This document shows, one piece after another, positions 6,222-56,710 of a stretch of DNA of 64,000 nucleotides. The position numbers and the translations under genes are program-made. The notes under the pieces were generated by a model. It was given only the letters and a program-made list of their open reading frames with translations, did no database searches and had not been told where the DNA came from. The DNA is taken from positions 2,720,001 through 2,784,000 of the forward strand of contig OZ243974.1 in the NCBI GenBank assembly GCA_965214775.1. The letters run 5' to 3'. The DNA is from Nitrosopumilus sp. (GTDB lineage: Archaea > Thermoproteota > Nitrososphaeria > Nitrososphaerales > Nitrosopumilaceae). How positions within the stretch are numbered: position 1 is the first letter of the stretch; the number at the start of each line of letters is the position of its first letter.

Positions 6222-6710
6222 AGACGCTATATGAAATCTTATCAGTATCCTGTGATATACAATTACCGTTGGGCCTGAGAGTCGATATGATCTTACCATG
6301 TACAAGGGTGTCTTACAGACTGACTCGCAACAGCAGGCGGAAAGCAATGTACCGCGCAGACGGTGAATGGGAGATTCCGCCCGGATCAGGCATTTTGATC
6401 AAAAAGGAGGTGATAACATGATCAACGTAGGAATAGACGTACACAAAAAGACATGCGTTGCAGCAGTAAAGGACGACTCTGGCAAGCTGCTAGAGCGATC
6501 CAAGTTTGAGAACAGCGTTTCTACAACAACGAATTTTGCAACAGACCTCAAGGCACAATACCCTGGACAGCTGTCAATCATGGCAGTATGCGAGTCCACT
6601 GTCACGCAGAGAAAGTATAAGAGGATGCATCGCTTAGCAACATCGTCCTGATTCGGAACACTGAGCTGGCAAGGGTCCACGGTAGGATTAGGTACGATTT
6701 CATATGGGAG
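6222..6710 (+). mobile_element. IS110 copy A, internally deleted (non-autonomous), both ends intact
   Basis: Ends match copies B/C; AG core at 6222-6223 and 6709-6710; recombinase deleted between CEST and TQRKY. Confidence 0.92.
6240..6382 (+). ncRNA. Putative bridge RNA of IS110 copy A (alternative target guides)
   Basis: Same stems as copy B; guides ATGATCT (6287-6293) and CTTACAG (6312-6318) match its own flanks CTTAT-AG-ATCAT; transcript ends not determinable. Confidence 0.7.
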
Positions 6711-8394: not shown

Positions 8395-9624
8395 TTATTT
8401 TATCTTCTTGTTTAGTTCTGTGATGAATTTTCTTATTTTTGGTTTTGGAATGACTGCGCCACATGCTTTATCGTGTCCTCCACCAGAGCCTCCAAGGTCA
8501 GTTGCCAAAACATTAACAATTTTTCCCAAGTGAACTTTGCAGTCCTTAGAGCCTCTTACAGATACTGCATAGATTCCATGGTCAACACGCTCTTTGTACG
8601 CAATCCCAACGTCTTTGCCAGACAATCCCATTACAAAGTTGACAGCTCCGCTTGCGCCAGAGTCTAGAATTTCCATGTAGCCAAGATTCTTCATTGTTTT
8701 CATTCCATCCTTTACTTTGGCAATCATTTGTGATAGTTTTTCAACCTGGATCTGTGCAAACTCAAACGTGTTTGGAATTTCATGTGGGAATTTTGAATTC
8801 GCAAGCTCCTCTACCAAATACAACAGATAGTCCGGTTCTTTTTGGTGTCCAACGATATTGTAAGTAAGAACAGTTGCACTGATTAGTGCAAATTGCCTGT
8901 CGTAGATTTGAAGCAGTTTTGAGCCAGTTGGACGGTCCTCCATATAATCAGTAATTGCAGCACATGCTGCGACAAATGACGCATGATCATTGAGTTTTGA
9001 TTTGAATGCAGAATAAACTTGGACTGCGGTACATTCATGGATATCATGAATTACTTTGACTTTGAGTCCCTCTAATGCTTTGACAACATTAGGGTCAATG
9101 TCATGGTGGTCAATGTAAGTGACTGCTACTTTGTTTTTTCTCAATGTGGACATAATATTGATAAATTCATCCTGAGTCTTTTTGCTAAGACCCAGATCGC
9201 AAACGTAGAGGGATTTTAGTTTTTCATCTAGTGCTGCCTGACTTAATGCCTCCATCTGCCCCGGATAATCTACAAGAATTGCATCACCACCAAATGCCTG
9301 CCTTACCAAAGCAGCTGAGCTAATTCCGTCTGCGTCTTCCTTGTGAGAGATGCAGATTACTTTGGTGCGCTTTGGTTTTGCAGTTTTTTTAACAGCTTTC
9401 TTTGCAGTTGTCTTTTTTGCTGTCTTTTTGGGTGCTGTCTTTTTGGGTGCTGTCTTTTTGGGTGCTGTCTTTTTGGGTGCTGTCTTTTTGGGTGCTGTCT
9501 TTTTGGGTGCTGTCTTTTTGGGTGCTGTCTTTTTGGGTGCTGTCTTTTTGGGTGCTGTCTTTTTGGGTGGTTTCTTGGCTACTCTTTTGGCAGTTTTTTC
9601 AGTTGTTTTTTTAGATCCTACCAT
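8395..9624 (-). CDS. DHH/DHHA1 phosphoesterase-family protein with Lys-rich histone-H1-like N-terminal tail
   Basis: SHKEDADG, DLG, IDHH and SGGGHDKACG motifs; PKKTA repeats. Confidence 0.88.
   Translation of the reverse strand: MVGSKKTTEKTAKRVAKKPPKKTAPKKTAPKKTAPKKTAPKKTAPKKTAPKKTAPKKTAPKKTAPKKTAKKTTAKKAVKKTAKPKRTKVICISHKEDADGISSAALVRQAFGGDAILVDYPGQMEALSQAALDEKLKSLYVCDLGLSKKTQDEFINIMSTLRKNKVAVTYIDHHDIDPNVVKALEGLKVKVIHDIHECTAVQVYSAFKSKLNDHASFVAACAAITDYMEDRPTGSKLLQIYDRQFALISATVLTYNIVGHQKEPDYLLYLVEELANSKFPHEIPNTFEFAQIQVEKLSQMIAKVKDGMKTMKNLGYMEILDSGASGAVNFVMGLSGKDVGIAYKERVDHGIYAVSVRGSKDCKVHLGKIVNVLATDLGGSGGGHDKACGAVIPKPKIRKFITELNKKIK
9419..9568. repeat. Perfect 15-bp tandem repeat x10 (encodes PKKTA)
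   Basis: GCTGTCTTTTTGGGT repeated ten times. Confidence 0.97.
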
Positions 9625-24702: not shown

Positions 24703-25931
24703 GCAAGAGTTTACCCCTCCTCCGAGATACGGTGCAGCAGGCGTGATCATAAAGGCTCCAGACAGCAGTGACGTAGTATCTACGTCAGCCATTTGTTCAT
24801 CTTTACCACCTTTATCTCGCCCCTGCGCGTCATACTGCGCAGTGATCTCTGCATCTCCTTGACGGTCTTGTAAAGGCAGTTTGAAGTCGCCTTTTTGAAC
24901 CCGCGCCACTGCCCCTCCGAGTTGTTAAGCTCCGGCGCGTACGGCGGCAGGTACTTTAGCACCACGTCCCCGTTCCACTTGGCCATCATTCCATTGAGTT
25001 CTGCTGACTTGTGGTACGATGCGTTGTCGACAAACAACAACACCTTGCCGTACTTGCGGCGCAGTGTCCTGAGAAACTTGTAGAATGTTCCCGTGTTGGC
25101 CTTTTCGTAAAAGCGATAGTCAAACCTGTTTCTTGAGAGGGCCCCTATGACATAGAACCGCTTCCTAGACAGGCTGACGGGCGTATAGACCGGCTCTCCT
25201 ACGGGGTACCAGCTGTTCTTGACGTTCCATCCCAGTATGAACATGGACTCGTCGCCTATCATTACCGTGTACCCCTTTTTTGAATAGTACTTTGCGCTCT
25301 GCCTAGCTTTTTTTTTTGAACTCCTTTTTCTCGGATTCTGAGGCTGATTTTGGGTGTTTTGGCCTGGGCTTTCTGCATGAGAAGCCGATTCTGTGCAGCA
25401 GGTCGTACATGCTCGTTTCTGCATACGTGATGCCGAACTTCTTTTTGACGTGGGCAATGACCAGCGGCCCTGTCCATGTTGTGGCCTTAAAGCCGCAGTT
25501 GTCCGGGCCCTTGATCAGGTCTGTACGCAGCCGTTCAAGCTGTTTCTTGTCGAGCCTGCACGGGGCGCCATGCTTTATGTCAAACCTGCCCTCCAGGCCA
25601 TGCTTGTGCGCACGCACCAGTCAGTATCGTACGGTTCCATACGGCCTGCTCAGCTTCTCGGCAATATCATATATGCTCGCGCCGCACTTTCTCATGTGGT
25701 ATGCAAGGAGCCGGATTGCCGCCTTGGCGTCCTTCTCGGACTTGTGCATCCTAAAAAGCTCGTCCTTGCTTGCTATCCCGTACAGGAACGCTGTTCCCGT
25801 CGGTAATTCCTTCTTTCCTTTCATGTGTATATATGGGACTAATAGCTCTTAGATCCTTTGGTTGAAAAAAATTGTCCTTTTTGTGATCAATTGGTAGCCG
25901 AGGATACTACGCCTAAGGGGTAAACTCGTAC
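24703..25931. mobile_element. IS66-type MITE (homologue of 59980-60070) split by an IS630 insertion
   Basis: GCAAGAGTTTACCCC at 24703 and GGGGTAAACTCGTAC ending 25931; halves align to 59980-60070. Confidence 0.7.
24774..25909 (-). mobile_element. IS630-family element; split transposase with nonsense mutation
   Basis: TAGTATC...GATACTA ends; GDES, DNASYH, LPPYAPELNNSE; TGG>TGA at 25621; A-run frameshift near 25310; near-identical to 54041-56282. Confidence 0.9.
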
Positions 25932-26194: not shown

Positions 26195-26341
26195 CGTCAT
26201 GCTGACATCCCGAAGGCGGCAGGCCCTCGCCGCCTGGAATTTCTTATGATTTTTGTAAAAAAAATAGACGGTGCAAAATGGCACCAATCCGGTTTCTCAC
26301 CCGATATACCTTATATGTGACGTCCATTAATAAGGATTCGT

Positions 26342-26416
26342 GGGCCGGTGGTGTAATCGGGCAGCACAGTCCGGTTTCTCACCCGACTGGTACGGGTTCG
26401 AATCCCGTCCGGTCCA
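26342..26416 (+). tRNA. tRNA-Glu(CTC)-like gene with irregular anticodon arm
   Basis: GGGCCGG/CCGGTCC acceptor, ACGGG-TTCGAAT-CCCGT T arm; anticodon arm GTCCGG-TTTCTCAC-CCGAC has two extra bases; TTATAT box about 30 nt upstream. Confidence 0.65.
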
Positions 26417-26659
26417 GCCCACATTTTTGTTCAACCCGAAACTGGTGTGTGGCGCCGCGCCGGCGGCATGACGCGATCCCCTGTCATGTGCAATCTAGGA
26501 CGTCTGGGACACGGTGGTCTCCTGATTCGGCAACCGGCATGATTTTCTGGATTCTCCACCACGTTGATCAGGACTGGCGTGGCCGGGACGGATGCGCGGG
26601 TATTTCAGCTTCCGGTTTATTTCGTTGGTAACCATATCAGTAGACGCTATATGAAATCT

Positions 26660-26804
26660 TATCCGTATCCTGTGATATACTATTACTGTTGGGCCTGAGA
26701 GTCGATTGGAACTTACCATGTACAAGGGTGTTCCGTAGACTGACTCACAACAGCAGGCGGAAAGCAATATACCGCGCAGAAGACGGTGAATGGGAGATTC
26801 CGCC
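26660..26804 (+). ncRNA. Putative bridge RNA of IS110 copy B
   Basis: Two stem-internal-loop modules: GAGTC[TGGAACT]ACC..GGT[TCCGTAG]GACTC and GGCGGAA[..]ACCG..CGGT[ATGGGAG]TTCCGCC; guides match target and donor; ends approximate. Confidence 0.72.
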
Positions 26805-26840
26805 CGGATCAGGCATTTTGATCAGAAAGGAGGTGATAAC

Positions 26841-27920
26841 ATGATCAACGTAGGAATAGACGTACACAAAAAGACATGCGTTGCAGCAGTAAAGGATGAC
26901 TCTGGCAAGCTGCTAGAGCGATCCAAGTTTGAGAACAGCGTTTTGGCAACAACGAATTTTGCAACATATCTCAAGGAACAATACCGCGGACAGCTGCCAA
27001 TAAAGGCAGTATGCGAATCCACTGCCAACTACTGGATTATCGTACATGACACGCTTGAGGACTGCGGGATAGACACCGTGCTGGTGCATCCGGCAAAGGT
27101 CAAGGTGATAGCGCACGCCAAGATAAAGGACGACCGCGTGGATGCAAATATACTTGCCGACCTGCTCAGAGCAGACATGCTGCCAGAGTCGTTTGTGCCT
27201 GACAAGCACTATAGGGACCTCAGAATGCTGGGCAGGACCAGAACCGGCAAGACAGCAGAAGCCACCAGGTGCAAGAACAAGATACACGCAATACTTGCAA
27301 AGTATGACTATGATCTGCCCACACACGGCACGTTTACGATTTCTGCCATACAGTACATTCAAGACGGGATAAAGATGTCAGAGATTGACGCGGCAACGGT
27401 GAAGATGTACCTTGATGACATCAAGAGGATACAGGATCAGATAAAGGATCTGGAGCGCAGCATTGCCTCCGTATCCGAAAGCGATCCGAGGGCCAAGACG
27501 ATTATGACCATGCCTGGAATAAGCCATGTCTCTGCACTGACGATAATCTCTGAGATAGTAGATATCAGGAGGTTTGCCACTCCAGAAAAGCTCGTCTCGT
27601 ATGCAGTGCTGACTCCCTCGCGCAGGGACAGCGCAGACAGACACAAAGGAGGCGGCATAACAAAGCAGGGATCCGTGTGGCTGCGCCAAGCCATGGTCAA
27701 CTCGGCCACAGTCGCAGTACGAAACGACCCAAGGCTTGGTTCGATATATGAAAGGATAGGAAAGAGACGTGGATGGCAAAAGGCAAAGATTGCAGTTGCA
27801 AGACACATGCTGGAGATAATCTGGCACATGCTGACAACCGGAGAAGAGTACCGCACTCAGAATAAGACTCTCACGCAGAGAAAGTATATGAGGATGCATC
27901 GCATAGCAACATTGTCCTGA
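26841..27920 (+). CDS. IS110-family DEDD recombinase
   Basis: VGIDVHK, VCES, KDDRVDA, PSRRDSA; RBS AGGAGGTG before ATG 26841; conserved YAGL reads YAVL in this copy. Confidence 0.93.
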   Translation: MINVGIDVHKKTCVAAVKDDSGKLLERSKFENSVLATTNFATYLKEQYRGQLPIKAVCESTANYWIIVHDTLEDCGIDTVLVHPAKVKVIAHAKIKDDRVDANILADLLRADMLPESFVPDKHYRDLRMLGRTRTGKTAEATRCKNKIHAILAKYDYDLPTHGTFTISAIQYIQDGIKMSEIDAATVKMYLDDIKRIQDQIKDLERSIASVSESDPRAKTIMTMPGISHVSALTIISEIVDIRRFATPEKLVSYAVLTPSRRDSADRHKGGGITKQGSVWLRQAMVNSATVAVRNDPRLGSIYERIGKRRGWQKAKIAVARHMLEIIWHMLTTGEEYRTQNKTLTQRKYMRMHRIATLS

Positions 27921-28060
27921 TTCGGAACATCACGCTGGCAAGGGTCCACGGTAGGATTAGGTACGATTTCATATGGGTGTTCCTAGATGTACTTTTGAAG
28001 GCATGATGATTACGTAATTTACCGAGATTTTTTGACCATTACGATCTTAGATCAGGAGGT

Positions 28061-29416
28061 GTGTCAAACATCATCATGATGTCACCAACACAAAACGATG
28101 TGTTTGCACACCAGTACGACATAGCATCACGCCAGTTTAAAACATTGCGACAGCGGTTCCCCAAGCTCGGAATGGCAGTCTCAAAGAGTCACAACGCGGT
28201 GTACGGCCATGCCGACGTACTGCGCGTACTAAGCATCATGTCTGATAGGAAGATGTTTGTCAGGTCTGCCGTGACGCATCTTCGCAGGAAGGCCTCAAAA
28301 TACCACTGGTAGCAGCAGTATGACGGCGGAACTACTGCTGCTGCTGCTGTTACCTCCTCCAAGAAGGGCGGCACATACAGCTCCCGTACACCCCATCCGG
28401 TCTGGATCCTAAAGACCATCCGGAGCGCCGGTCTGGACGAGACGCAAAGGTGGTGCAACTCCATGTTACAGCACACGGTAAGAAACGGCCGCAGGTCCGG
28501 CATGTTACACAACACGGACGTAGTGGCAATAGACGCTACTGACGTCGAATACTATGGCAAGGGCCTAAAGGATGTAGCCAGAAAGTCAAAGCCCAAGAAC
28601 GGTACGTCTACTTTTCTCTCGCACATTACCGTGCACGGAATAGGATCCGATGACGGCTCTGACCTCGTGCTTTCCTCGCTGCAGCTTCCAAAAGATGCAA
28701 AACTGGCCGATTTCGTGTCTAAAATGATCCGCAAAGCGTCCAGATCAGGGACGAAGATCAAGACATACCTGTATGACCGGGGATTCTTTAATGTCAACTG
28801 CATGGTGGCCGCAGGCAAAAGCCCGGGCTACTACGTCATGCCTGCAGTCAAGAACAAGAGGATAAAGGCGGCAATAGAGGAGCATCACCATAAAAAGCGC
28901 GATGCGATATCTGACTATGCCATGACCAACAAGGAGGGCAAAAGCGTCACGTTCAGGCTGGTCATTGTGAAAAAGAAAGAAGATGAAGACGAAAACAAAG
29001 ACAAAGACACAGACAAAAACAAAAACAAAAACAAAGAGGAATGCACAGAAAAAAAGAAGGAAAAGAAAAAAGAAACGGCAGACGACTACTTGGTCTTTGC
29101 CACCAACATGCATGCCAAAAGCGTAGAGGCCGTCATAGCTCAGATACCAGAAGAGTACCGCATGCGGTGGGGAATCGAGACCGGGTTCAGGGTGATCAAG
29201 GGAGTAATGGGCAAGACATGCAGCAATTCGCCGGCAGTCAGGATGTTGTTATTCTACATGCCCCTCATACTGTACAATCTCTGGAGGACTGCCATATTCA
29301 TGGATGTGGAATCCAAATGGGGCGGATTTGCGGGAGGTAAGGAGTTTACCATGGCGTTGTTTGTCGAGTGTATTACAGATGCAGCAGACTCGTTTGTAAA
29401 TGATCGCGGAAAGTAG
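28061..29416 (+). pseudogene. ISH3-family transposase with single in-frame TAG (28310-28312)
   Basis: ORFs 28061..28312 and 28463..29416 are in one frame, open between them; AIDAT, YDRGFF, YRMRWGIETGFR. Confidence 0.82.
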
Positions 29417-29474
29417 TAGCGGCGGCCGCAGTGGTGCCGTGCCAGATGATGGTCTGCAAAAGTACACCTAGGAA

Positions 29475-29892
29475 CTCCCATATGAAATCGTACCTAATCC
29501 TACCGTGGACCCTTGCCAGCGTGATGTTCCGAATCAGGACAATGTTGCTATGCGATGCATCCTCTTATACTTTCTCTGCGTGAGAGCCTTGTTCTGAGTG
29601 CGGTACTCCTCTCCGGTTGTCAGCATGTGCCAGATTATCTCCAGCATGTGTCTTGCAACTGCAATCTTTGCCTTTTGCCATCCACGTCTCTTTCCTATCC
29701 TTTCATATATCGAACCAAGCCTTGGGTCGTTTCGTACTGCGACTGTGGCCGAGTTGACCATGGCCTGGCGCAGCCACACGGATCCCTGCTTTGTTATGCC
29801 GCCTCCTTTGTGTCTGTCTGCGCTGTCCCTGCGCGAGGGAGTCAGCCCTGCATACGAGACGAGCTTCTCCGGAGTGGCAAACCTCCTGATAT
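29475..29892 (-). mobile_element. IS110 copy D, 418-bp 3' fragment in tandem with copy C
   Basis: Duplicates 29893-30310; starts exactly at an internal AG site of the recombinase gene. Confidence 0.9.
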
Positions 29893-29951
29893 CTCCCATA
29901 TGAAATCGTACCTAATCCTACCGTGGACCCTTGCCAGCGTGATGTTCCGAA

Positions 29952-31031
29952 TCAGGACAATGTTGCTATGCGATGCATCCTCTTATACTTTCTCTGCGTG
30001 AGAGCCTTGTTCTGAGTGCGGTACTCCTCTCCGGTTGTCAGCATGTGCCAGATTATCTCCAGCATGTGTCTTGCAACTGCAATCTTTGCCTTTTGCCATC
30101 CACGTCTCTTTCCTATCCTTTCATATATCGAACCAAGCCTTGGGTCGTTTCGTACTGCGACTGTGGCCGAGTTGACCATGGCCTGGCGCAGCCACACGGA
30201 TCCCTGCTTTGTTATGCCGCCTCCTTTGTGTCTGTCTGCGCTGTCCCTGCGCGAGGGAGTCAGCCCTGCATACGAGACGAGCTTCTCCGGAGTGGCAAAC
30301 CTCCTGATATCTACTATCTCAGAGATTATCGTCAGTGCAATGACATGGCTTATTCCAGGCATGGTCATAATCGTCTTGGCCCTCGTATCGCTTTCGGATA
30401 CAGAGGCAATGCTGCGCTCCAGATCCTTTATCTGATCCTGTATCCTCTTGATGTCATCAAGGTACATCTTCACAGTTGCCGCGTCAATCTCTGACATTTT
30501 TATCCCGTCTTGGATGTGCTGTATGGCAGAAATCGTAAACGTGCTGTGCGTGGGCAGGTCATAGTCATACTTTGCAAGTATGGCGTGTATCTTGTTCTTG
30601 CATCTGGTGGCTTCTGCCGTCTTGCCGGTTCTGGTCCTGCCCAGCATTCTGAGGTCCCTGTAGTGCTTGTCAGGCACAAACGACTCTGGCAGCATGTCTG
30701 CTCTGAGCAGGTCGGCAAGTATATTTGCATCTACGCGGTCGTCCTTTATCTTGGCGTGCGCTATCACCTTGACCTTTGCCGGATGTACCAGCACGGTGTC
30801 TATCCCGCAGTCCTCAAGCGTGTCATGTACGATAATCCAATAGTTGGCAGTGGACTCGCATACTGCCTTTATTGGCAGCTGTCCGCAGTATTGTTCCTTG
30901 AGATATGTTGCAAAATTCGTTGTTGCCAAAACGCTGTTCTCAAACTTGGATCGCTCTAGCAGCTTGCCAGAGTCATCCTTTACTGCTGCAACGCATGTCT
31001 TTTTGTGTACGTCTATTCCTACGTTGATCAT
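29952..31031 (-). CDS. IS110-family DEDD recombinase (intact)
   Basis: Same motifs as copy B with canonical SYAGLTP. Confidence 0.94.
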   Translation of the reverse strand: MINVGIDVHKKTCVAAVKDDSGKLLERSKFENSVLATTNFATYLKEQYCGQLPIKAVCESTANYWIIVHDTLEDCGIDTVLVHPAKVKVIAHAKIKDDRVDANILADLLRADMLPESFVPDKHYRDLRMLGRTRTGKTAEATRCKNKIHAILAKYDYDLPTHSTFTISAIQHIQDGIKMSEIDAATVKMYLDDIKRIQDQIKDLERSIASVSESDTRAKTIMTMPGISHVIALTIISEIVDIRRFATPEKLVSYAGLTPSRRDSADRHKGGGITKQGSVWLRQAMVNSATVAVRNDPRLGSIYERIGKRRGWQKAKIAVARHMLEIIWHMLTTGEEYRTQNKALTQRKYKRMHRIATLS

Positions 31032-31067
31032 GTTATCACCTCCTTTCTGATCAAAATGCCTGATCCG

Positions 31068-31212
31068 GGCGGAATCTCCCATTCACCGTCTTCTGCGCGG
31101 TACATTGCTTTCCGCCTGCTGTTACGAGTCAGTCTACTGAACACCCTTGTACATGGTAAGTTCCGATCGACTCTCAGGCCCAACAGTAATTGTATATCAC
31201 AGGATACAGATA
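31068..31212 (-). ncRNA. Putative bridge RNA of IS110 copy C
   Basis: Minus-strand guides CGGAACT (31159-31165) and TCAGTAG (31134-31140); the latter matches the flank TCAGT-AG 7/7. Confidence 0.72.
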
Positions 31213-31298
31213 AGATTTCATATAGCGTCTACTGATATGGTTACGAATTCTGACAAATTAGGTGCCAACCCCGATGGCAGTACAAGGCAAGGCATTCC

Positions 31299-31408
31299 GT
31301 AACAGGTCGGGCTCTGGAAGCTGCTCCTGATTTTAGGCACAATCTACACGGGAGGCCTCCCCAAGATGACAAAACTCGCGCCTGAACTTCCAGAGCCCGA
31401 CCTGTTAC
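31299..31408. mobile_element. IS66-type MITE family B (110 bp)
   Basis: Perfect 22-bp TIR GTAACAGGTCGGGCTCTGGAAG; perfect 8-bp TSD GGCATTCC. Confidence 0.9.
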
Positions 31409-31503
31409 GGCATTCCTTTGTTTTCCTCTAGATTCAGACAAGCCTGATCTTCATACAAGAGTCATCAAGAGATGCAGATGCAATCAAGACAAGACAAGCT
31501 CAA

Positions 31504-33111
31504 TCAGAATATCTCTTTTGGGCGGTATTTGCCAAAGACATCTCTTAACGTATTGCTGATCTCACCAGTGGTTGCAAGTGCCTTGGCCGCTGAAATGATG
31601 TACGGCATCAGATTCCTATCAGCAGTGTCAGCTGCACTCTGCATGGCAGACAATGCTTTTTCCAGTTTCTCAGAGTCTCTTTCTGCACGCAGTTTCTTGA
31701 GGGCCCTCTTTTGCATGATCTCAACTTTGCCTCCAATTCTAAGCAGATCCGGCTGCTTCTCCTTTTCGGCATATTTGTTGACTCCAACAATGATTCTGTC
31801 GCCATCATCAATCTCCTTCTTTAGGCGGTATGCGTTTTGTCTAATTTCAGACTGGAAGAATCCCTTTTCGATTGCCCTGACAGAGCCCCCCATTTTTTGG
31901 ATCTTTTTCAGGTATTTCCAGACACCATCTTCAATTTGGTCACACAGCTCCTCAAGATAATACGAGCCGGCAAGTGGGTCGGCAGTCTTCGTAATGCCGC
32001 TTTCGTGGGCAACGATCTGCTGTGTTCTGAGGGCAATTTTTGCAGATTCCTCGGTCGGAAGTGCAAGTGCCTCGTCCCTAGAGTTTGTGTGCAGTGACTG
32101 GGTGCCGCCGGCAACTGCGGCCATTGTTTGAATTGCAACTCGGACAATGTTGTTGTCAGGTTGCTGGGCAGCAAGGGACTCGCCGCTTGTCTGCGTATGG
32201 AACTTCAGCTGTAACGAACGGGGGTTTTTTGCATGGAACATCTCTTTTAGGATTTTTGCATACACCTTTCTTGCGACTCTAAACTTTGCAACCTCCTCAA
32301 AGAATTCCATTGTACAGCAGAAAAAGAACGACAGCCTGGGCGCAAAGTCATCAATCTTCAAGTCTTGATCAAGGCAGGTTTGGATGTATGCAATGGCGTT
32401 GGCCAACGTGAATGCGACCTCTTGGGTTGCAGTACATCCAGCTTCCCTCATATGATAGCCGGAGATCGAGACAGGATACCACAGGGGAACCTTTTGCGCA
32501 CAGTATCCAATCATGTCACCGATCAACCTCATCGAAGGCTGTGGAGGATAGATGTAGGTGTTTCTTGCAATGTATTCCTTGAGAATGTCGTTCTGAGTCG
32601 TTCCGCGCAATTCATGGCTTTTAAAGCCCTGTGATTCGCCGACTGCAATATAGTATGCCAGCAGAGTCGATGCAGTGGAATTGATCGTCATAGAGGAGCT
32701 GACATTTCCAAGGGGAATGCCGTCAAAGGCAGTCATCATGTCCCTGATAGAAGTAATTGACACGCCGACTTTTCCGACCTCGCCTTCTGCCTGCGGGGAA
32801 TCAGAGTCATATCCAATCTGAGTAGGCAAATCAAAGGCCATGCTAAGACCGGTTTGTCCTTTTTCGAGCATGAACTTGAACCGCTCATTTGTGAGTCTTG
32901 CATCCCCAAAACCAGAATACTGGCGCATGGTCCAGAATCTGTCACGATACATTCCCGGATGAATCCCTCTGGTAAACGGGAATTTTCCAGAGTCTTCGCT
33001 TGGACGCCTCTTTGATGACTTTAGATAGATTCGTTTTACCAGAAAGTTGGAATCCGTGAAAAATCTCTTTTCGGGATCTCTTGGTTTTTTTGCTTTCCTT
33101 GCTGCTGCCAT
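31504..33111 (-). CDS. mcmA: Methylmalonyl-CoA mutase, large (substrate-binding) subunit
   Basis: PFTRG, WTMRQYSGFG, GTTQNDILKEY, SISGYH, QSLHTNSRDEALALP. Confidence 0.95.
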   Translation of the reverse strand: MAAARKAKKPRDPEKRFFTDSNFLVKRIYLKSSKRRPSEDSGKFPFTRGIHPGMYRDRFWTMRQYSGFGDARLTNERFKFMLEKGQTGLSMAFDLPTQIGYDSDSPQAEGEVGKVGVSITSIRDMMTAFDGIPLGNVSSSMTINSTASTLLAYYIAVGESQGFKSHELRGTTQNDILKEYIARNTYIYPPQPSMRLIGDMIGYCAQKVPLWYPVSISGYHMREAGCTATQEVAFTLANAIAYIQTCLDQDLKIDDFAPRLSFFFCCTMEFFEEVAKFRVARKVYAKILKEMFHAKNPRSLQLKFHTQTSGESLAAQQPDNNIVRVAIQTMAAVAGGTQSLHTNSRDEALALPTEESAKIALRTQQIVAHESGITKTADPLAGSYYLEELCDQIEDGVWKYLKKIQKMGGSVRAIEKGFFQSEIRQNAYRLKKEIDDGDRIIVGVNKYAEKEKQPDLLRIGGKVEIMQKRALKKLRAERDSEKLEKALSAMQSAADTADRNLMPYIISAAKALATTGEISNTLRDVFGKYRPKEIF

Positions 33112-53036: not shown

Positions 53037-54040
53037 TATGGAACACGACAGTTATTACTGCAGTCAGCCCATCAAATATCGGAACATCTTTACCGGTAGG
53101 ATCTCTCCGCTGGCAAACAGATTCCGCACGGACTGCTCCATCTCATCAAGCGTATCAAACACCTTGGCAGACAGCCTCCGCTTTATCTCCCTCCACTGTA
53201 TCTCTACAGGATTGAGCTCCGGCGTGGACGGCGGCAGGTACTCCAGCATTAACTCGCCCTTGTACTTTTCCAGCGTCTTTTTTACGCCGACAGACTTGTG
53301 GTATGACGCATTATCTAGGAATATCAACACCTTTCCGTATTTTTCGTGCAGATTTTCCAAAAAGTCGCAAAAGCTGTCGGTGTTGGTCTTGTCATAGAAC
53401 ATATGGTAGAATATACCGACTGCCAGCACGCCGAAGATGTACCGGCGCTGCCGTGACAGCGTCAAGGGCGCCGTGATGCTCATGCCGCGCCTGAACCACC
53501 CATGTTTGGGGCTATTTGAGGTCTTTTGTATGGATGACTCGTCTTCTGTCATTACCGTATACCCTTGTGCCTCCTTTTCCCGTATCAGCTCCTGGGATGC
53601 CTCCTCGAACTCGTTCTGCTTGCGTTTTGAGGCGGACTTTGGGTTCTTTGGCCTTGATTTCTTCCAGGAGAACCCAAGCTCGTGTGCCAGCAGCCGCGTG
53701 CCGCTCTTGCTGTATTCTATGCCGAACTTCTTTTTGATGTGCCGCCTTATCAGGCCCGAGTCCCACAAACTGCTCTCAAAGCCGCACTCCTCTGATCCTG
53801 ACTTGAGATCCGCCTCAAGCTGTTTCAGCTGCGACTCACTCAGCTTGTGCTTGCGTCCCCTGCCTGGCCGCTCATGCCTTGCGCGTATTCCCTCGTCCTG
53901 CGCGCGGATGAGCCACCTGGATATGGTGGAATGTGCCCGGTCGAGGTTCTTTGCTATCTGTTCTGTATCGAGGTCGTCCTTGCGCTGCATGTATGCCAGC
54001 AACCTGTCGCGCTTTCTCTTGTCTGTCTCCTTTTTGTACG
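53037..54040 (-). mobile_element. IS630-family element, 5'-truncated by neighbouring IS630
   Basis: EDES, DNASYH, PELNPVE; ORF 53064..54092 reads out of the adjacent element end. Confidence 0.85.
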
Positions 54041-56282
54041 TAGTATCCTCGGCTACCAATTGATCACAAAAAGGACAATTTTTTTCAACCAAAGGATCTA
54101 AGAGCTATTAGTCCCATATATACACATGAAAGGAAAGAAGGAATTACCGACGGGAACAGCGTTCCTGTACGGGATAGCAAGCAAGGACGAGCTTTTTAGG
54201 ATGCACAAGTCCGAGAAGGACGCCAAGGCGGCAATCCGGCTCCTTGCATACCACATGAGAAAGTGCGGCGCGAGCATATATGATATTGCCGAGAAGCTGA
54301 GCAGGCCGTATGGAACCGTACGATACTGGCTGGTGCGTGCGCACAAGCATGGCCTGGAGGGCAGGTTTGACATAAAGCATGGCGCCCCGTGCAGGCTCGA
54401 CAAGAAACAGCTTGAACGGCTGCGCGCAGACCTGATCAAGGGCCCGGACAACTGCGGCTTTAAGGCCACAACATGGACAGGGCCGCTGGTCATTGCCCAC
54501 GTCAAAAAGAAGTTCGGCATCACGTATGCAGAAACGAGCATGTACGACCTGCTGCACAGAATCGGCTTCTCATGCAGAAAGCCCAGGCCAAAACACCCAA
54601 AATCAGCCTCAGAATCCGAGAAAAAGGAGTTCAAAAAAAAGCTAGGCAGAGCGCAAAGTACTATTCAAAAAAGGGGTACACGGTAATGATAGGCGACGAG
54701 TCCATGTTCATACTGGGATGGAACGTCAAGAACAGCTGGTACCCCGTAGGAGAGCCGGTCTATACGCCCGTCAGCCTGTCCAGGAAGGTTCTATGTCATA
54801 GGGGCCCTCTCAAGAAACAGGTTTGACTATAGCAATGATCAGAAGTCTTTGAGCCAAAACGGGATCATTCGAAAAGTATATGGATCGCCTAACCGGCGCA
54901 ATGACATGGCAAAAGAAACAGACAAAAGCCTGTCAGAGGCCATGCGCAAAGAAAAGGATGTCAAAGTCTACAAGAAGATCATGGCGCTGATGTTTGTGCT
55001 AGAAGACGACGTGGGCGTGCCTGAGACTGCAAGAAGGGTCCGGTGCAGTGAGAATTCCGTGCGCAACTGGCTGGCGAGGTTTTCGGAGGACGGCATAGAC
55101 GGTCTCCGGGATCTTCCCCGTTCCGGATGCAGGCCAAAGGTGGACAGAGAAAGTATTGCCGCCATAATGGACCTGTCCACTGCATGCAAAAGTACCGATG
55201 TTATGACGGTACGCGATGACATAAGGGATGCCACCGGGACAGAATACAGCACAGGACATGTCCGAAAACTGATGCGCCAGCACGGCCTGTCGCGCCGCAA
55301 GGTGCAAAACGTGCATGTCAACCATGCCACCCCAAGCTCCGTATACTCGTGGCAACGGTATCTTGAAAACGTGCGGATTCCGTGCCTGAAAAGAGAGGGT
55401 TTTACGCTGGTGTCATCTGATGAGGCGTTCTTCGTGCAGGGCGCATACGACAGATACGTGTGGGGTCCGGTCGGCACCAGAAGCGTGGCATCGTATTCGG
55501 GGGACCACACAAAGGTGGCCGTGTTTGGAAGCATCGCAGAAGACGGCAGAAGGCTGTTCAGGACGTTTACGGGATCGTTTAGGTCAGTGCAGTTCATACA
55601 ATGTCTGGAGGCGTTGCGCGCCAAGTTTGGCAAGGTTGCCGTCTTTTGCGACAGGTGGAGTGTGCACAGATCTATTGACGTCGCAGAATATCTGGCAGGT
55701 CATCCCGACATCAGGCTGATAATGATCCCGAAGGGATCGCCGTACCTCAATATCGTGGAAGAATGCTGGAACCTAGGCAAGCCTGTCGTTTTCAGGGGGA
55801 TAGTGTACAGGAAAATCAGCGAGCTACGGCATGCCATATCCGAGTACTACAGGACGGTGTCGTTTGCCCACCTTTGCATGTACAAGTACATTTACAGATC
55901 GCCGGTCAAAGCCCTCAATTACTTGTGACCGTTGCTATATCGCTTTTACGAAAAGGCCAACACGGGAACGTTCTACAAGTTTCTCAGGACACTGCGCCGC
56001 AAGTACGGCAAGGTGTTGTTGTTTGTCGACAACGCATCGTACCACAAGTCAGCAGAACTCAATGGAATGATGGCCAAGTGGAACGGGGACGTGGTGCTAA
56101 AGTACCTGCCGCCGTACGCGCCGGAGCTTAACAACTCGGAGGGGCAGTGGCGCGGGTTCAAAAAGGCGACTTCAAACTGCCTTTACAAGACCGTCAAGGA
56201 GATGCAGAGATCACTGCGCAGTATGACGCGCAGGGGCGAGATAAAGGTGGTAAAGATGAACAAATGGCTGACGTAGATACTA
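54041..56282 (+). mobile_element. IS630-family element (same as 24774-25909) interrupted by another IS630
   Basis: TAGTATC...GATACTA ends; orfA 54126..54686, orfB split at 54829/55938. Confidence 0.9.
54830..55937 (+). mobile_element. Nested IS630-family element with single-ORF transposase (54849/54907..55928)
   Basis: TAGCAATGATCA / TGACCGTTGCTA ends, TA duplication restores host GACTATCGC; SDEA, DRWSVH, SPYLNIVEECW. Confidence 0.9.
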
Positions 56283-56331
56283 CGTCTTGTGCAGGTAGGA
56301 GCGACTCGTATTTGGCAGGAATTTGCCCCCT

Positions 56332-56474: not shown

Positions 56475-56710
56475 GCCACAAACTCCTTTCTCTGTCTGTC
56501 CATGCATATGTCGTCATTACGACACTCCCCATCCCTCGAATAGTTAGGCCACAAACTCCTTTCTCTGTCTGTCCATGCATATCAGTACTTCCTAGGTGTA
56601 CTTTTACAGGCACGGTAATTACGTAATTTGGAGAAGATCTTATGCGTAAACGAAGTTAGCGGCTATGGCGTGCCGGGTCTGCAAAAACACATCTAGGAAG
56701 TACTGATATG
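56475..56710. repeat. 36-bp direct repeat pair flanking a unique 37-bp insert (site 4; second copy later hit by ISH3 MITE)
   Basis: GCCACAAACTCCTTTCTCTGTCTGTCCATGCATATG at 56475-56510 and 56548-56582 plus 56710. Confidence 0.92.
56583..56705. mobile_element. ISH3-derived MITE (123 bp) with intact TIRs
   Basis: CAGTACTTCCTAG(G/A)TGT TIRs, ATAT TSD; sub-terminal similarity to both ends of the 26638-31234 element. Confidence 0.88.

Follow-up and report, generated by a model that had tools for sequence, protein, structure and literature searches.

An IS110-family element with a predicted bridge RNA in both terminal inverted repeats of an ISH3-like insertion sequence in a Nitrosopumilus genome

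IS4321 and IS5075, insertion sequences (IS) of the IS1111 group, reportedly lie in the 38-bp inverted repeats of transposons from the Tn21 family (Partridge and Hall 2003), and IS1383 is said to target the inverted repeats of IS1384 in Pseudomonas putida H (Müller et al. 2001). Two reports establish experimentally that the IS110 family is RNA guided (Durrant et al. 2024, PMC11208160; Hiraizumi et al. 2024, PMC11208158), and RNA guidance with natural reprogramming is likewise established (PMC11208160 and PMC11187229). IS621, as described in PMC11208160 and PMC11208158, has the order left end (LE), recombinase, right end (RE), with CT cores; the left target (LT) joins the right donor (RD) at the LE, and the left-target guide (nucleotides [nt] 50 to 58) precedes the right-target guide (nt 77 to 80). 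IS1111-group elements carry subterminal inverted repeats of 11 to 13 bp and a noncoding region downstream of the gene (PMC11187229). Here, we analyzed 64,000 nt of an archaeal genome, that of Nitrosopumilus sp. (GCA_965214775.1, contig OZ243974.1, positions 2,720,001 to 2,784,000; hereafter, the window, or G000:C1:2720001-2784000), in which copies of an IS110-family element sit in both terminal inverted repeats (TIRs) of an ISH3-like IS. The principle is not new, TIR targeting by IS110/IS1111 elements and bridge or seek RNAs both being known from bacteria, and the locus is an instructive archaeal case. As the original prediction for this locus had surmised, literature searches returned no description of a TIR-targeting IS110 element for Thaumarchaeota or Nitrososphaeria, with the qualification that archaeal or mirrored elements may already figure in the supplementary target tables of PMC11208160 and PMC11187229. 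For soil ammonia oxidizers, a 2012 fosmid study does no more than list transposases of the IS110, ISH3, and IS630 types.

Our reading, to which we assign a probability of roughly 80%, is that a bridge-RNA-guided IS110 element entered the outermost 10 bp (CAGT-AG-TTCC) of both TIRs of an old ISH3-like IS in at least two separate events. A repeat search of the window delimited two inverted arms (26625-27977 and 29895-31247) of 1353 nt each, 97% complementary and 1917 nt apart; where the right arm faces the interior, it also marked a direct repeat spaced by 418 nt. The left side of the locus reads GTAACCATAT/CAGT/AG, then copy B of the IS110 element (ACGC...CATATGGG), then TG/TTCCTAGATGTACTTTTG (Table 1). 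The right side, reverse-complemented, reads GTAACCATAT/CAGT/AG, copy D, AG, partial copy C (IS positions 921-1336), and AG/TTCCTAGGTGTACTTTTG, and 31231-31244 is an inverted copy of 26628-26641. The right end of D meets C through AG at an IS-internal AGT/AG site, and C, at the 418-nt spacing, is 100% identical to the corresponding part of D. Both insertions sit after TIR base 4, in opposite orientations, and the AG, present once per side, is TIR bases 5 and 6; the junctions and the uninterrupted copies of the host bear out this part of the original prediction. A single AG per junction is the mark that IS110 recombination leaves at a 2-nt core. The outer flank ends in ATAT (26634-26637), which can be read as the left half of the target duplication made by ISH3.

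The inner element encodes a DDE_Tnp_1 transposase (PF01609, 44.1 bits; cutoff, 23). Its best NCBIfam match is NF033541 (ISH3), at 129.6 bits here and 141.7 bits for an intact copy of 465 amino acids (aa); these scores lie below the cutoff of 225, and we therefore call the host ISH3-like. The assignment to ISH3 made from the sequence alone is supported in this sense, with the host as an ISH3-like element. Uninterrupted copies carry CAGTAGTTCC(C/T)AG(A/G)TGTACTTTTG at both ends. ISH3 elements make target duplications of 4 to 5 bp, and 4-bp duplications (AATC, ACAT, and ACTT) flank 3/4 uninterrupted copies checked, the copy at genome position 429278 being without one. The genome contains eight full-length copies of this family, one of them interrupted, and one truncated copy. 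In 5/7 copies read, the frame is open over 463 to 465 aa; the two split copies are that of the window, with transposase parts at 28061-28312 (83 aa) and 28463-29416 (317 aa), and its nearest relative at genome position 1449253 (83 plus 317/320 aa in the pair). The window copy is ∼92% identical to the intact copies and is a pseudogene, old and already decayed. An interval that had been taken for an uninterrupted TIR, 56583-56705, is instead an ISH3-type miniature inverted-repeat transposable element (MITE) whose ends (CAGTAC) lack the AG core and are therefore not the same target.

The identity of the occupying element as IS110 was confirmed by profile searches: B matches PF01548 (98.9 bits) and PF02371 (75.1 bits), with similar scores for D, and NF033542 ("IS110 family RNA-guided transposase") scores 245.5 bits against a cutoff of 140. 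The solved IS621 and ISCro4 recombinases are sequence relatives (E ∼1e-11), the IS621 chain aligning in the C-terminal part (E = 1.3e-11). The element has no TIR and makes no target duplication. The core flanks it on both sides, in the junctions CAGT/AG/ACGC (left) and GGG/AG/TTCC (right), and is present once in the empty site, CAGTAGTTCC; 14/15 right junctions in the genome have AG, the exception being B (TG). A noncoding left end of 199 nt (26642-26840) precedes the gene and a right end of 57 nt (27921-27977) follows it, and the upstream position of the long end is that of the IS110 group as opposed to the IS1111 group. B and D are 97.4% identical, differing at 35/1336 positions, and recent copying of one from the other is therefore excluded; D is 99.2% identical (11 differences) to E, a third copy elsewhere in the genome. 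By analogy with the IS110 family, the element would be active and would pass through a circular intermediate.

When the left ends of all copies in the genome were aligned, two short segments changed with the flanks while their surroundings remained constant. The bases at 26705-26713, which read AUUGGAACU in B, are complementary to AG and the first right-flank bases, and those at 26731-26740 (UUC(A/C)GUAGAC) equal the last left-flank bases plus AG; specifically, UUGGAACU is the complement of AG+TTCCAA, and UUCAGUAG is TCAGT+AG. Both fit the ISH3-like TIR, in line with the RNA-guided reading proposed at the outset. We predict that the left end is expressed as an RNA of ∼150 nt. A fold of four helices and 20 pairs is proposed, for which 140/140 cells are paired in seq­uences of seven copies from five genomes, with 6/20 pairs changed on both sides (compensatory); in slid controls, where partners were moved by 1 to 3 columns, 32 to 43% of cells paired. 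RNAalifold recovered 3/4 of these helices independently from nine sequences, and three invariant G-U pairs fit the sense strand only. The fold of the left end as a single sequence (z-score, −0.95) was uninformative, and the comparative fold was therefore needed. In the predicted donor module, all relatives have a 3′ strand (AAUGGGAG) identical to the right end plus core. Across five genomes, the 5′ strand changes together with the complement of the left-end start, over a block of 3 to 5 nt: AGC in the source genome (G000) and AAC, UAGUG, UAGUA, and UAGCA or UGGCA in genomes G036, G012, G153, and G117, respectively. A full left-end complement including the core was sought in this strand and not found, leaving only the short covarying block supported.

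Comparison of guides and flanks across copies supports covariation of the guide strands with at least five target classes in this genome and two other genera (Table 1). A hand count over all 15 readable copies of the source genome gives 65/75 matching positions between the 3′ strand and the 5 nt to the left of the core; the corresponding count for the 5′ strand and the 4 nt to the right of the core is 32/44 (11 copies). With one representative per class, the matches are 47/50 on the left (shuffled mean, 21.2; 0/20000 shuffles as high) and 22/24 on the right (4/720 permutations as high). The representatives, 10 left and 6 right from three genomes, were hand-picked, with the worst-matching rows omitted and relatives added, and flatter the numbers, the all-copy counts being the fairer figure. 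Weak rows on the right are D (1/4; its flank lies in C), the copy at genome position 2787934 (1/4; its flank lies in another copy's left end), and copy F (2/4).

The perfect 10-nt target CAGTAGTTCC occurs 33 times in the genome, 31 of them at the termini of two ISH3-like families, which fits the proposed multicopy safe harbor. Fifteen are termini of the family described above (including two MITE ends), 16 belong to the second family (CAGTAGTTCCGATTG...), one lies in the ISH3 body, and one lies elsewhere. Since one terminus among the 16 actually consists of IS110 guide DNA joined to a TIR, 30 termini are empty. The second ISH3-like family is ∼1245 bp long with ends CAGTAGTTCCGATTGTG (e.g., genome positions 430205-431450 and 14 further ends), and it presents this target at 15 empty ends and an IS110 left-end remnant at one. 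The genome-wide count of occupied against empty TIRs that the original prediction had called for thus gives five occupied or scarred sites with both sides readable (B, C/D, copy E, a 17-nt scar, and a 97-nt remnant) against the 30 empty ones. Each of the other target classes likewise lies within another multicopy repeat: 3 occupied versus 12 empty sites for the IS630 class, 3 versus at least 13 for the second-IS110 class, 3 versus 7 for CTTAT/AG/ATCATG (beside an open reading frame [ORF] with a weak IS5-like match), and 1 versus 5 for the unnamed repeat. Four host types carry a transposase gene (ISH3-like, IS630, second IS110, and the weak IS5-like match). In the two checked, the IS630-family and second-IS110 hosts, the site lies between the element end and the transposase start, upstream of the gene.

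The element yields 48 BLAST segments across the genome. Full intact copies number three (B, D, and E), and a fourth full copy, F, contains a 119-nt MITE insertion (a MITE of ∼111 nt, at genome positions 2634063-2634173, that also lies directly right of the locus at 31299-31409 and has at least 25 BLAST matches). Seven internally deleted derivatives of ∼490 nt, with deletions at short direct repeats, keep the bridge-RNA region and right end without a recombinase and are candidate nonautonomous elements with their own guides; one of them, copy A, lies in another repeat, 58 nt upstream of the ORF with the weak IS5-like match. Four further junctions occur at an AG preceded by a left-target-like sequence: the D/C junction (internal AGT/AG, IS position 919), the 17-nt scar (ATT/AG, position 1318), and two junctions at DNA encoding the 3′ guide (position 96). 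In one of the latter (genome positions 1348576-1348677), a left-end fragment is fused at the guide CAGT/AG to a TIR of the second ISH3-like family, and in the other (2788411), a right end runs directly into a different copy's guide region. The 3′-guide DNA necessarily repeats the left target plus core and, judging from these fusions, appears to be used as a recombination pseudosite itself.

IS110 relatives were detected in 33/201 genomes in a search of sampled Nitrososphaeria. The closest (G036, 55% aa identity) has flanks CGTAAT/AG/TTAATT and loop strands GUAAUAG and AAUUAAC(A), so that left target GTAAT goes with guide GUAAUAG and right target TTAATT with AAUUAA. In G117 (46% aa), the left flanks GGTAAGT/AG and CCAGT/AG accompany the strands UUAAGUAG and UCCAGUAG (guides UAAGUAG and CCAGUAG), and in G153, CTTACC/AG accompanies UUUACCAG. 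G117 also holds a counterpart of the double occupancy: an rve-type IS (PF00665) with TIRs ...GGTAAGT/AG/TTCCGCCTA has both TIRs filled, head to head, by the IS110 homologue at locus L035 (G117:C1:1676800-1685000), and a second copy of the same IS (L037) has both TIRs empty. A third IS110 copy lies in tandem 1.7 kb upstream at L035. Locus L034 of the same genome was considered as a second double occupancy and set aside, as its two inverted IS110 copies seem to be without the last part of the right end.

These data suggest the following mechanism. An RNA of ∼150 nt from the left end would carry two internal loops. One strand of the first would pair with AG+TTCC, to the right of the site, and its partner with the complement of (T)CAGT+AG, to the left. 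The strands of the second would correspond to the right end of the element itself (AUGGG+AG) and to its left end in complement. A DEDD/Ser recombinase would exchange strands at AG (CT opposite), leaving one AG on each side and no duplication. Since the TIRs are inverted copies of the same target, two insertions would stand head to head, each parting the 4-nt tip from the remaining TIR. For DDE transposases, a severed TIR tip should block end cleavage, and only precise IS110 excision could restore it. Immobilization of the host IS, as originally proposed, is therefore a reasonable expectation from the way DDE transposases use their ends, with the reservation that this copy, ∼8% diverged from intact ones, is already a pseudogene. 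Homologous recombination between the arms of the 1.3-kb inverted repeat could flip the interior. Within the genome, the lineage has diversified its guides, each class sitting in a different resident multicopy repeat, and C would be a partial tandem duplicate from a recombinase-type event at the internal AGT/AG pseudosite.

Several observations weigh against guided, independent insertion. The copy at genome position 2169386 has a CAGT left flank and a CUUAU guide (1/5 match). The 3′ guide of B has one mismatch to its own site (UUCCGUAG), and the right core of B is TG. Copy F has ISH3-class guides yet an IS630-class right flank; the original prediction had named the same guides at unrelated sites as evidence against it, and F supplies this in part, as its left flank (CCAGT/AG) fits and its right flank (ATCTCC) does not. 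A comparison of F with ISH3-class and IS630-class copies, made for a possible recombinant origin, showed its right part to be equidistant (95%) from all copies. The donor 5′ strand is without the core pairing seen in the target loop. No relevant Rfam match was found in 26400-31500 at E values up to 10, the presence of a bridge-RNA model in Rfam 15 not being established; a weak snoRNA-like match at 31396-31459 was judged irrelevant. With 30 perfect termini empty, activity is low or past. GTAACCATAT stands outside CAGT in B, D, and E but at 0/30 empty termini, with unrelated DNA beyond it, a pattern more readily explained by junctions of shared ancestry than by targeting that is free and independent.

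In an alternative, a single guided insertion occurred and the mirror image arose later, through fold-back or inverted duplication, homologous recombination of ISH3::IS110 composites, or mobilization of a composite by the machinery of a second IS110-family element whose left boundary is GTAACCATAT. This second element (∼1380 bp; NF033542, 230 bits; ∼25 full or deleted copies) is inserted at the tip (G/TA/CAAC) of another IS, and the flank of the third copy is at genome position 2030270. On the left, B, D, and E have an identical stretch of 14 nt (GTAACCATATCAGT), and on the right they have AGTTCCTAG; further out they differ. The flank occurs in 3/9 CAGT-type left junctions versus 0/30 empty termini (hypergeometric P ∼0.009, by hand arithmetic), and rearranged pieces of ISs crowd both the locus and the DNA around it. 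However, D is no recent copy of B given 35/1336 differences against 11 between D and E; B and D belong to different sublineages, and two insertions are therefore the simplest reading. The ATAT at either side agrees with an undisturbed 4-bp target duplication of ISH3. The reciprocal product, an ISH3 bordered by the inner portion of the left end of the second IS110, was not found (the sole ISH3-type end beside ATATGTGTCTC is a MITE at genome position 1198039), and neither locus has a right end of the second IS110 nearby. The 16-nt palindrome expected from joined outer flanks has 0 matches in the genome, and BLAST of the outer flanks found no empty site elsewhere in it, the right flank entering other small repeats. 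An ISH3-type MITE sits at the same ATAT of another second-IS110 copy, which suggests an ISH3 hot spot at CATATG; the shared flank may stem from such a hot spot followed by recombination, from comobilization by the second IS110, or from an inverted duplication. On balance, we consider a single insertion unlikely.

Collapsed or misjoined repeats could also have produced a symmetric structure, or a copy C, that is absent from the cell. C is 100% identical to part of D, the element is highly repetitive, and public contigs break at every repeat border. Four public runs were available as Logan contigs only, which stop at repeat borders, none spanning a junction by 31 nt on both sides; a 774-nt contig (X1 and X2 runs) covers 26300-26657 without mismatch but only 16 nt into B, and contig joints 29583 to 30848 (one X2 contig, side 26) and 31329 to 31361 have short sides and were left uninterpreted. 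Yet the genome is one closed 2.83-Mb contig, B and D are distinguishable at 35 sites, the junctions are exactly as core-specific recombination predicts, and an analogous double occupancy exists in another genus (G117), so that an artifact is very improbable. We give next to no weight to target choice by protein alone or by local DNA structure at IS ends, with the left-end matches being coincidence or remnants of old insertions. The guide-like segments are admittedly short (7 to 8 nt), and the 3′-guide DNA is itself a recombination pseudosite, but across at least five classes and three genomes the segments vary together with the flanks, the stems around them staying paired, and PMC11208160 and PMC11208158 describe the IS110 family as experimentally RNA guided. 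Movement of the ISH3-like IS as a composite transposon between the IS110 pair was rejected, as head-to-head copies predict inversion in the case of a site-specific recombinase and no second composite exists in the genome.

Table 1. Features of the locus and target classes of the element. Positions are those of the window unless marked as genome (G000) positions.
Feature	Position	Strand	Remarks
Outer flank GTAACCATAT	26628-26637	+	Identical 10 nt beside D and copy E
Left ISH3-like TIR tip CAGT	26638-26641	+	Severed from remaining TIR
IS110-family copy B	26642-27977	+	1336 nt including one AG core; begins AGACGC, ends CATATGGG
Predicted target-binding module	26699-26746	+	Fold and guide/flank covariation
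Target module, outer stem	26699-26704 with 26741-26746	+	Predicted
Target module, 5′ loop strand AUUGGAACU	26705-26713	+	Predicted
Target module, inner stem	26714-26717 with 26727-26730	+	Predicted
Target module, 3′ loop strand UUCCGUAGAC	26731-26740	+	Predicted
Predicted donor-binding module	26757-26803	+	Fold and end matches
Donor module, outer stem	26757-26761 with 26799-26803	+	Predicted
Donor module, 5′ strand AAGCAAUA	26762-26769	+	Predicted
Donor module, inner stem	26770-26774 with 26784-26788	+	Predicted
Donor module, 3′ strand AAUGGGAGAU	26789-26798	+	Equals right end plus core
B recombinase gene	26841-27920	+	359 aa from ATG behind GGAGGTGA; open frame, 376 aa
Right-junction core of B	27978-27979	+	TG in place of AG
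ISH3-like body and inner parts of both TIRs	27980-29474	+	Starts TTCCTAGATGTACTTTTG, ends CAAAAGTACACCTAGGAA
Unoccupied perfect 10-nt target CAGTAGTTCC inside ISH3 body	28328-28337	-	
Core CT linking C to right ISH3 TIR	29475-29476		Plus-strand reading
IS110 partial copy C	29477-29892	-	IS positions 921-1336, last 416 nt
Core between C and D	29893-29894		CT on plus, AG on minus
IS110-family copy D	29895-31230	-	Full length
D recombinase gene	29952-31031	-	359 aa
Right ISH3 TIR tip	31231-31234	-	ACTG on plus
Right outer flank ATATGGTTAC	31235-31244	-	ATAT, then GGTTAC
Copy A	6222-6708	+	487 nt, internally deleted; whole bridge-RNA region and right end; guides UAUGAUCU, UCUUACAG
ISH3-type MITE	56583-56705	.	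∼120 bp; ends CAGTAC, without AG core
Copy E	Genome 2030284-2031619		13 nt of TIR left before IS630 insertion
Right-end scar, 17 nt	Genome 1209798		
Left-end remnant, 97 nt	Genome 1348672		
Copy F	Genome 2633347-2634801		Left flank CCAGT/AG, right flank ATCTCC
Derivatives of ∼490 nt	Genome 181545, 808417, 1124124, 2787934, 2784516, 2831779; window 6222-6708		
IS110 homologues at G117 L035	2729-4235 and 5748-7256 (of L035)		
Target TCAGT/AG/TTCC, ISH3-like TIR			5′ guide UUGGAACU or UCGGAACU; 3′ guide UUCAGUAG
Target TTTAT/AG/ATCTCC, IS630-family element			5′ guide UGUGAUCU; 3′ guide UUUUAUAG
Target CTTAT/AG/ATCATG, beside ORF with weak IS5-like match			5′ guide UAUGAUCU; 3′ guide UCUUAUAG
Target CTTAT/AG/ATCGGG, another repeat			5′ guide UAUGAUCU; 3′ guide UCUUAUAG
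Target CAAAC/AG/ATTGAG, left end of second IS110			5′ guide UUUAAUCU; 3′ guide UCAAACAG
Target ATTAC/AG, truncated copy			5′ guide not read; 3′ guide UCUUACAG

The IS cluster directly adjoins a core metabolic gene, that for methylmalonyl-CoA mutase (31504-33111, minus strand; PF01642, 707 bits), which lies 260 nt from the composite's right edge. Elsewhere in the window, segments at 24770-25911 and 54039-56286 are 100% or 99% identical, inverted, and 28 to 30 kb apart, and are probably another IS pair able to invert the whole region, including the IS110/ISH3 locus. A tandem array at 9373-9606, with the 15-nt unit TGCTGTCTTTTTGGG and 11 overlapping copies of an 84-nt reference, is probably a repetitive coding stretch.

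The case offers a clearly resolved bridge-RNA element from an archaeon, one whose polarity is mirrored and whose guides have radiated, inside a single genome, against other mobile elements. At least five natural guide variants of one element each lie in their own repeat with empty sites beside them, and two more genera add support. For the engineering of bridge recombinases, these are ready-made guide/target pairs, together with an archaeal scaffold whose polarity is mirrored relative to IS621. In ammonia-oxidizing archaea, the share of IS copies split or scarred by another IS bears on how ISs are annotated, how their potential for transposition is estimated, and how rearrangements are interpreted. 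A more far-reaching interpretation, which we hold to be doubtful, is that the archaeal IS110 clade forms a distinct mirrored-site subclass and a guide-diversifying hyperparasite of ISs in single genomes, each class disabling a different repeat near its end and bridge-RNA-only derivatives riding on a few full copies. If the host cell were to profit from IS silencing, this would be a natural RNA-guided anti-transposon device.

The polarity of the element is best described against IS621. The sense-strand core is AG, and the strand matching the left target plus core is the 3′ strand of the loop; the IS621-type arrangement, with a sense CT core and the left-target guide on the 5′ side, was not found in this orientation. 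With the antisense strand taken as top, the arrangement becomes isomorphic to that of IS621, and the recombination sites are therefore inverted relative to the genes. Two nucleotides (AC) behind the 3′ guide match the left-end start in a handshake-like manner.

Half-match recombination and expanded or tandem IS110 loci are described for bacteria in two preprints (bioRxiv 10.64898/2026.08.31.748434 and 10.64898/2026.08.14.744561), and C/D, the 17-nt scar at genome position 1209798, and the left-end fragment at 1348672, all at half-matching sites, resemble these events; the elements in those studies are bacterial, and the events here are read from static sequence. With IS621 and the IS110 group, the element shares the DEDD and Tnp domains, the long noncoding left end upstream of the gene (here, 199 nt versus a right end of 57 nt), the absence of TIRs and target duplications, a 2-nt core on both sides, two pseudosymmetric internal-loop modules matching target and donor, and the handshake-like AC behind the 3′ target guide. 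It differs from IS621 in its core (AG versus CT), in the position of the left-target strand (3′ versus 5′), in its archaeal host, and in a recombinase that is only distantly related. IS1383 is likewise an IS110-family element aimed at the inverted repeat of another IS and provides a second, bacterial precedent. The parallel with IS4321/IS5075 drawn in the original prediction is apt: in both cases an IS with a DEDD recombinase lies at one fixed position and orientation inside the TIR of another element, with either end possible. Unlike IS4321/IS5075, the element described here has its noncoding region upstream, a subterminal repeat of ∼10 nt (ATATGAAATC), and an archaeal ISH3-like host; it works like IS4321/IS5075 but is not a member of that group.

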